Positions 32,089 through 32,673 of a stretch of 64,000 bases of DNA are shown here, in pieces (position 1 is the stretch's first letter; each line of letters starts with the position of its first letter). Both the position numbers and the translations under genes were made by a program. The stretch lies in the NCBI GenBank assembly GCA_031701365.1, contig GCA_031701365.1_4118.1. The stretch is one strand, 5' to 3'. Below the pieces are notes generated by a model. The model saw only the letters and a program-made list of their open reading frames with translations. It had not been told where the DNA came from and did no database searches. The stretch is from Escherichia coli. GTDB taxonomy: Bacteria > Pseudomonadota > Gammaproteobacteria > Enterobacterales > Enterobacteriaceae.

Positions 32089-32673
32089 ATGCGTAACTAT
32101 ACTAAATTCATCCGTTCACTTCATGCAATGGAAACTAATAAAGAGATCCTTACAGCTTGTCGGTTAGCTGGTCTGGAGATCGTCGGTGCGGGTTCTTCCC
32201 GTATTGTATTCGCTTTAAATGATCGGTTAGTGATTAAGGTCGCTAATAGTGATGCTGGCGTAGATCAAAATGAAACTGAATGTAAGGTATGGAATTTTTT
32301 AGATTATGACCGTCCGCACCTTAAACAGTACTTTGCAAAGGTGCATATGCATTTATGCGATCCTGATAATCTGTTTATTGTTATGGATCGTTTGAGTATT
32401 GCAAGCAAAGGTAGTGCAAAGCACATAACGGCCTGTAATGAATTAAAGTACAATGCTAAACGTAAAACTATTGAACGCCAACACCATTTTGCCGATGCAC
32501 TACAACACGTCGATGATACATTATCAACACTAACGATCATTGATATCAGCAAGACGAACATAGGCCAGGATCGCAACGGCTTGATTAAAGTACTTGATTA
32601 CGGTTTAACCCGCAATATCTGGAATCAGTACTATAAAAAGCGTGATGTAAAAACCGTAACAATAACACGATAA
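32089..32673 (+). CDS. putative atypical Ser/Thr protein kinase (RIO/Kdo-like)
   Basis: 194 aa from MRNYTKF, SD AAGGAG; Gly loop IVGAGSSRIVF, lysine strand VIKVA, catalytic-loop-like IIDISKTNIG, DFG-like VLDYG. Confidence 0.55.
   Translation: MRNYTKFIRSLHAMETNKEILTACRLAGLEIVGAGSSRIVFALNDRLVIKVANSDAGVDQNETECKVWNFLDYDRPHLKQYFAKVHMHLCDPDNLFIVMDRLSIASKGSAKHITACNELKYNAKRKTIERQHHFADALQHVDDTLSTLTIIDISKTNIGQDRNGLIKVLDYGLTRNIWNQYYKKRDVKTVTITR

Follow-up and report, generated by a model that had tools for sequence, protein, structure and literature searches.

Protein kinases encoded by phages have lately moved from curiosity to mechanism, with T7 gp0.7 and JSS1_004 disarming many defence systems through mass phosphorylation (PMC13645617, PMC12345140). 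T7K phosphorylates Ser/Thr/Tyr residues promiscuously and so disarms defence systems, and the T7K paper describes a jumbo-phage clade, with G17 and Munch, in which 'DP' is conserved and V is not (PMC13645617). In the paper on the Escherichia phage Sharanji, the protein WNN14351.1 is called 'another protein kinase' with unknown function (PMC11895373). The gene analyzed here is an orthologue of the latter, and below we compare its product, locus and wider family with these and other kinase systems.

Source phage, gene and prior annotation

The gene lies in a 64-kb stretch of DNA, referred to as a whole as the window, that is 90-95% identical to the Escherichia phages 121Q, phAPEC6, PBECO4 and Sharanji and their relatives. 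The matching phages are Asteriusvirus, Rak2-like jumbo myoviruses of ~350 kb. The same protein sequence is recorded in NCBI for a 347-kb contig assigned to E. coli, an assembly in which the terminal repeat was probably collapsed and the ends joined. The gene and its ribosome-binding site are located as follows:

32075-32080, plus strand: Shine-Dalgarno sequence AAGGAG, 8 nt 5' of the ATG, read from the sequence
32089-32673, plus strand: coding sequence of a 194-aa, C-lobe-truncated protein-kinase-like enzyme of PHROG 4301, from homology, profile, model and dN/dS

The 194-aa open reading frame starts with ATG and contains the four kinase-like motifs that an earlier, sequence-only reading had pointed out, at residues 29-43, 48-52, 150-159 and 168-172. 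The dN/dS ratio against three orthologues was 0.18-0.22; it is a real gene, and the value of ~0.2 reflects purifying selection.

Orthologues include 121Q gp308, Sharanji gp063 (WNN14351.1) and Muenster_043 (CPT_Muenster_043). A tblastn search located the gene in 60 phage records, all of 310-386 kb, from phages of Escherichia (33), Klebsiella (10), Salmonella (8), Yersinia (4), Erwinia (2), Pectobacterium (2) and Xanthomonas (1). The kinase label for this gene family is not new, and several public phage records carry it: the orthologue is a 'protein kinase' in Klebsiella phage K64-1, a 'putative protein kinase' in Muenster and fENko-Kae01, and a 'serine/threonine-protein kinase' in the Escherichia phages Turkey5, Turkey3 and fEgEco12. 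The Muenster record notes an HHpred match of 99.9% to 6J5T_M, and the UniProt name of the PBECO4 fragment is 'Protein kinase domain-containing protein'. The label 'hypothetical protein' persists in 121Q, PBECO4, Sharanji gp063 and most other records. The Rak2-like orthologues share 36-90% identity with the gene product over 90-100% of its length, have the same size and likewise lie in the early or terminal-repeat region. Those already annotated show no substantive difference from it. Our literature searches found no experimental study of this family, here called the mini-kinase family.

Evidence for a kinase-like fold

Taken as a single query, the protein matched Pfam Pkinase (PF00069) at E=0.085 and 12.7 bits, under the 31.7-bit gathering cut-off, and a search of NCBIfam matched nothing. 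All eight of its PDB sequence matches at E<10 were protein kinases, and the alignments with PDB kinases were colinear through the beta3 Lys, helix C Glu, hinge, catalytic loop and DFG. A profile of ten homologues matched MAP2K7 in the PDB at E=2.8e-5, with residues 27-181 of the query on kinase residues 19-172; by sequence, ePKs (MAP2K, PKC, BTK) come nearest. Residues G33, G35, K50, E64, D152, N157, D170 and G172 are invariant in all ten homologues, which are 40-93% identical to the query, and a Pfam Pkinase match at E<=0.1 was obtained for 10 of 58 family members (best E=5.7e-6).

An earlier AlphaFold run on a shallow alignment of ten homologues gave a poor model (pLDDT 53.6). With an alignment of 97 family sequences at 21-93% identity (alignment A3), the model reached a pLDDT of 90.2 and a pTM of 0.87. 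The fold neighbours of this confident model were kinases only, small-molecule and RNA kinases among them. Foldseek matches to the PDB were weak (E ~5e-4, TM ~0.4) and included Lpg2603, APH(2''), MEK1 and SAICAR synthetase. The predicted structure is a bilobal ATP-binding fold, with a five-stranded N-lobe sheet and helix C, then helix E, the catalytic loop, beta7-8 and the metal-binding loop. The catalytic residues expected of the protein-kinase-like (PKL) superfamily, namely the beta3 Lys, helix C Glu, catalytic Asp, metal-binding Asn and DFG Asp, can all be assigned in the alignment. Because of the profile matches, the invariant residues, the confident model and the weak PDB fold matches, we conclude that the gene product is a PKL superfamily member without a close solved relative. 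The resemblance to kinases proposed in the sequence-only reading was thus borne out by the profile E-values, the invariant residues and the AlphaFold model, whose predicted fold is kinase-like.

Active-site motifs and the shortened C-lobe

The active-site elements and the C-terminal tail were mapped as follows:

32185-32202, plus strand: Gly-rich loop G33-A-G35-S-S-R38, with R38 in the place of the third Gly and invariant in 97/97 (alignment)
32236-32238, plus strand: beta3 Lys K50 (VIKVA), invariant in 97/97 (alignment)
32266-32280, plus strand: helix C signature Q60-N61-x-x-E64, E64 being predicted to pair with K50, and Q60/N61 being family-specific invariants (alignment, model)
32542-32559, plus strand: catalytic loop D152-I-S-K-T-N157, non-RD (I-I-D) (alignment)
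32596-32604, plus strand: DFG-equivalent D170-Y-G172, with D and G invariant in 97/97 (alignment)
32605-32670, plus strand: short C-terminal tail in place of the activation segment and helices F-I (model, alignment)

In the AlphaFold model, an N-terminal extension of two helices (residues 4-12 and 17-26) precedes beta1, the Gly loop and beta2 (30-42). K50 lies on beta3 and is followed by a long helix C (55-73) that bears G57, Q60, N61 and E64, the hinge strand (96-100) and helices D and E (109-120 and 130-145). After helix E come the catalytic loop I-I-D152-I-S-K-T-N157, beta7, beta8 and D170-Y-G, past which the model has one short helix (175-181) before the C-terminus at residue 194.

Twelve residues are invariant in 97/97 sequences (G35, S36, R38, K50, A52, G57, Q60, N61, E64, G159, D170 and G172), position 152 is D or E in 97/97, and Y182 in the C-terminal tail is kept in 92/97. 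Two features are specific to the family: Arg (R38) where the third loop Gly would stand, and a Q-N pair that precedes E64 by one turn. The catalytic loop has no HRD His/Arg, and the metal-binding motif is an ePK-like D-[YF]-G. The catalytic-loop Asn is usually near-invariant among active kinases. In the mini-kinase family, N157 is invariant in the close jumbo-phage subfamily only; distant members have Q, H or S at this position (N 23, Q 33, H 26 and S 15 across the 97 members). These substitutions suggest that the active-site chemistry of the family may differ from that of canonical kinases.

The chain ends 24 residues past D170, and consequently the activation segment and helices F-I are missing; neither these nor an APE/P+1 loop was found in the sequence or in the AlphaFold model. 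Likewise, the alignments of the family profile with PDB kinases end at kinase residue ~172-187. In relatives no longer than 260 aa, the DFG-like Asp is followed by a median of 27 residues, and the units of tandem members end in the same way. As judged from these sequences, the short C-lobe is a family-wide trait and not a truncation of a single gene. The protein does not reach the PF00069 gathering threshold and lacks the activation segment, P+1 loop and helices F-I of that domain.

Assignment to known families

The sequence-only reading had further placed the protein among RIO/Kdo-like kinases. While its kinase-like call stands, this subtype does not, and the short chain after D170 had been overlooked. 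Neither Pfam RIO1 (PF01163) nor Kdo (PF06293) matched the query at E<=10, and neither was listed for the 58 members at E<=0.1, where the Pfam families touched were Pkinase (10/58) and ABC1 (5/58). The serine of the D-x-S-x-x-N motif, S154, is already R, N, S, H or T among the ten closest homologues, and the metal motif is DYG. A RIO kinase was accordingly rejected on the profile, on the lack of a conserved D-L-S-x-x-N and on the lack of a RIO-type metal loop, and a Kdo kinase was rejected on the profile.

The only PHROG match of the query was phrog_4301 ('unknown function'; E=1.6e-39, residues 1-191), and six distant relatives likewise match PHROG 4301 alone. In PADLOC-DB, the query remained unmatched and eight relatives gave one match (E=0.009); a known anti-phage defence component was rejected on these profiles. 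HopBF1 and YrbL are further minimal PKL enzymes. HopBF1 was not among the structural matches listed. The YrbL/PhoP-regulated family (Pfam PF10707) did not match the query or the members scanned; one distant multidomain relative scored 29.4 bits, under the cut-off of 31.5.

Phages of the same group also encode a T7 gp0.7-type kinase. In Sharanji this is gp144 (WNN14432.1; locus L003, 26183-26857), a T7K-like protein of 224 aa with a D-P-L motif that matches phrog_15752 (4e-97) and phrog_2828 (7e-16). Its gene lies ~46 kb from the mini-kinase gene in Sharanji, and no T7K-like gene was found in the 64-kb window. We rejected the possibility that the mini-kinase is a divergent T7K paralogue: it has no PHROG 2828/15752 match, it carries DYG and not DP[VL], and profile-profile comparison of the 97-sequence family with the T7K-like family by hhalign gave a probability of 2%. 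By these sequence comparisons the mini-kinase and T7K families are separate lineages, and the jumbo-phage clade of the T7K paper is of the gp144 type, not of the type encoded at 32089-32673.

Transcription unit and terminal-repeat location

The following features place the gene in a short transcription unit and in a terminal repeat:

31758-31786, plus strand: probable promoter TTGACA-17-TACTAT (10/12, perfect -35), identical in 121Q, Sharanji and E9.1
31815-32057, plus strand: 80-aa open reading frame between the promoter and the kinase gene, probably co-transcribed, with no PHROG match (ORF, PHROG scan)
32685-32720, plus strand: terminator-like hairpin (32685-32712) overlapping the next promoter, TTGACT-17-TATTAT (32692-32720)
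15904-36096, no strand assigned: counterpart of the direct terminal repeat of phage E9.1 (exact, 20,107 bp), containing the kinase gene (alignment)

The probable promoter lies 300 bp upstream of the kinase-like gene, and the terminator-like hairpin at 32685-32712 would close its transcription unit. The nearest perfect promoter is at 30972-31000, and a terminator-like hairpin (31468-31486) intervenes between it and the gene. The surrounding 8 kb consist of small genes, all in one direction; of ten neighbouring genes, nine fall in PHROGs without an assigned function and one has no PHROG match.

Ideal promoters for the host RNA polymerase are unusually dense at 28330-34339, where seven perfect (12/12) sigma-70 promoters (TTGACA, 16-17 nt, TATAAT) lie within 8 kb, all on the plus, coding strand before small genes. 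A 36-nt composite element, AAAGGGATTGACTCnGGTCAGTCCCTTTGCTATTAT, occurs twice on the plus strand, at 30092-30127 and 32685-32720, with no occurrence expected by chance. It is a terminator-like hairpin with a 12-bp stem; the following promoter has its -35 (TTGACT) within the 5' arm and TATTAT as its -10, so that one module would end one transcription unit and start the next.

From the alignment with the E9.1 repeat, ~16.2 kb would separate the gene from the left physical end, and the repeat would extend ~3.4 kb beyond the gene to its boundary. In Muenster, whose annotated terminal repeat spans 20,030 bp, the homologue is found 17.3 kb into the repeat, and records that hold both repeats have two copies of the gene. 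The terminal-repeat location, assigned by homology to E9.1 and Muenster, implies that the gene is probably present twice per genome.

Other parts of the window were characterized by homology. At approximately 28,060-28,750 (plus strand), a DksA-like C4 zinc-finger protein and a GNAT acetyltransferase are encoded, by homology to 121Q gp294/gp295 and E9.1 CDS0040/0041; more than one protein-modifying enzyme may therefore be encoded in the terminal-repeat early region. Window positions 1-15,903 align to the right-end unique region of E9.1, and the pooled Ser/Thr/Tyr content of the proteins predicted there is high (0.257). This segment includes, at ~1-11,700 on the minus strand, serial paralogous genes of ~370-400 aa whose E9.1 homologues, CDS0625-0638, are annotated 'regulator of chromosome condensation (RCC1) repeat protein'. 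Long head-to-tail runs of tiny, near-uniform open reading frames of ~60-80 aa occupy ~11,600-15,400 and 36,100-44,000 (plus strand), again by homology to E9.1.

The wider mini-kinase family

An exhaustive profile search recovered 1,886 representative clusters at E<=1e-3, 173 of them at E<=1e-10. These ~1,900 clusters, formed at 50% identity, come mostly from large phages and have no Pfam family. The family signature is G-x-G-S-S-R, K-x-A, G-x-x-Q-N-x-x-E, D-x4-[NQHS]-hydrophobic-G and D-[YF]-G-x9-Y. Tandem members carry two or three complete mini-kinase units per polypeptide (P0032, 468 aa; P0022, 693 aa), and in P0151 (2130 aa) an N-terminal mini-kinase is followed by GNAT, 2H/LigT-like and CCA/poly(A)-polymerase domains. 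When 185,579 species genomes were scanned with two peptide patterns of the close family, a search of narrow sensitivity, no cellular homologue was detected, and a search of IMG/VR returned only 121Q itself.

Distant homologues were located on large uncultured contigs (L009 7001-8404, L011 7001-7762 and L006 5001-5765). In the myovirus contigs of this kind they are flanked by gp13-like neck and tail-sheath genes, L009 having two paralogues side by side, and on one 291-kb contig a homologue adjoins a KTI12-like P-loop kinase and an RtcB RNA ligase. The neighbourhoods of distant members are thus mixed (structural, replication, baseplate and RNA repair), and since none is consistent, guilt by association gave no substrate. 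We tentatively propose, as a possibility short of an even chance, that the family constitutes a large, unnamed and essentially phage-restricted group of 'half-C-lobe' mini-kinases, some of them tandem, with non-canonical substrate recognition. It might then represent a second widespread phage phosphorylation system besides T7K, serving anti-defence or take-over, or acting as a non-protein (RNA) kinase.

Proposed function and alternative explanations

We regard it as very likely that the gene product is an active PKL phosphotransferase. The fuller proposal, namely an active minimal kinase that phosphorylates proteins, is directed at the host and acts early in infection, is in our judgment somewhat more probable than the contrary. 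According to this proposal, the gene would encode a catalytically competent minimal PKL phosphotransferase with the N-lobe complete and the C-lobe reduced to its core. Lying second in a short unit in the terminal-repeat early region of the ~350-kb Asteriusvirus phage, the gene would be transcribed by the host RNA polymerase from a sigma-70 promoter. A non-RD loop fits a kinase that has no activation loop to phosphorylate; given the I-I-D sequence, no activation-loop phosphorylation should be needed, and the enzyme would probably be constitutively active once made. It could then phosphorylate Ser/Thr/Tyr residues of host, and possibly phage, proteins early in infection, for host take-over or counter-defence, a role analogous to that of T7 gp0.7. 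Substrates would be recognized without the canonical peptide-binding platform. By analogy with T7K and JSS1_004, protein substrates and a take-over or anti-defence role are the most likely.

Several observations count against this proposal. The parts that bind peptide substrates are absent, Asn157 is Q, H or S in distant members, and distant members lie in varied non-early contexts. In addition, a depletion of Ser/Thr/Tyr as reported for T7-like phages, which would be a mark of a promiscuous kinase, was not significant among the early proteins of the window (0.173 versus 0.191, p=0.11).

The best-surviving alternative, though in our view rather unlikely, is an active PKL enzyme with a non-protein substrate. 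This could be RNA, phosphorylated at a 2'-OH or at an end as by the archaeal minimal kinase ArkI, or else a lipid, a nucleotide or a small molecule, like the substrates of APH and Kdo kinase. Counting against a plain protein-kinase reading are the small-molecule and RNA kinases among the structural neighbours of the model, the fusion of P0151 to GNAT, 2H/LigT and CCA/poly(A)-polymerase domains, and the one RtcB/KTI12-like neighbourhood. However, the families nearest in sequence are ePKs (MAP2K, PKC, BTK) and Pfam Pkinase, the link to RNA repair amounts to two cases among very mixed contexts, and the jumbo-phage T7K-like protein is still a protein kinase despite having no activation segment.

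An ATPase/switch role has been argued for RIO kinases. The corresponding explanation here, that the protein binds or hydrolyses ATP as an ATPase, nucleotide-dependent switch or binding protein and does not transfer phosphate, is improbable, as K50, E64, D152, N157 and D170 are strictly kept in the subfamily of the gene, D or E occupies position 152 throughout the 97 sequences, and there is no specific affinity to RIO by sequence. Finally, a chance resemblance or a spurious open reading frame, to which the sub-threshold single-sequence Pkinase score (12.7 versus 31.7 bits) and the poor first model (pLDDT 53.6) might have pointed, is refuted by the profile E-values, the confident model with kinase-only neighbours, the ~1,900 clusters, the purifying selection and the independent HHpred annotation.

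With regard to the proposed protein kinase, its conservation across the clade, its terminal-repeat location and the sigma-70 early genes make it a testable candidate for host take-over or counter-defence. As the kinase-like identification is already on record, the value of the present analysis rests in follow-up experiments. After T7K, the family is a reasonable experimental target in view of its short C-lobe, family-specific invariants, tandem multi-kinase proteins and terminal-repeat position, and it offers structural biologists a natural case of a kinase that may need only a small part of its C-lobe. Phages of the Rak2-like jumbo group are phage-therapy candidates against E. coli, Klebsiella and Salmonella, and they carry two unrelated minimal kinases.

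Comparison with known kinases

Among known kinases, the ePKs (MAP2K7, MAP2K4 and PKC-theta) gave the best sequence matches, with the Gly loop, VAIK-type Lys, helix C Glu, hinge, D-x4-N and D-[FY]-G colinear. In contrast to ePKs, the phage protein is sub-threshold in Pfam, has no HRD His/Arg, has Arg for the third loop Gly and lacks helices F-I. RIO kinases have chains of 245-269 residues in which the C-terminal helices are kept, unlike the 194-aa phage protein, for which RIO ranks no higher than ordinary ePKs or APH. The archaeal RNA kinases ArkI/Ark1 (7vnx, 8yv5) and the Legionella effector kinase Lpg2603 (6vve) resemble it at a TM of only ~0.4 and without a detected sequence relation.

The T7 gp0.7 family (PHROG 2828/15752, Pfam PF27024) is likewise phage-encoded, early, very small and kinase-like, and its jumbo-phage member also stops ~20 residues past the DFG-equivalent Asp. 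The folds are alike as well, since BFVD matches of the phage protein to T7-like kinases were obtained at E ~1e-5 to 1e-6 and TM ~0.54. The two families differ in the metal-binding motif (DP[VL] in T7K versus DYG in the mini-kinase), in the shut-off domain, which is absent from the mini-kinase, and in their locus.
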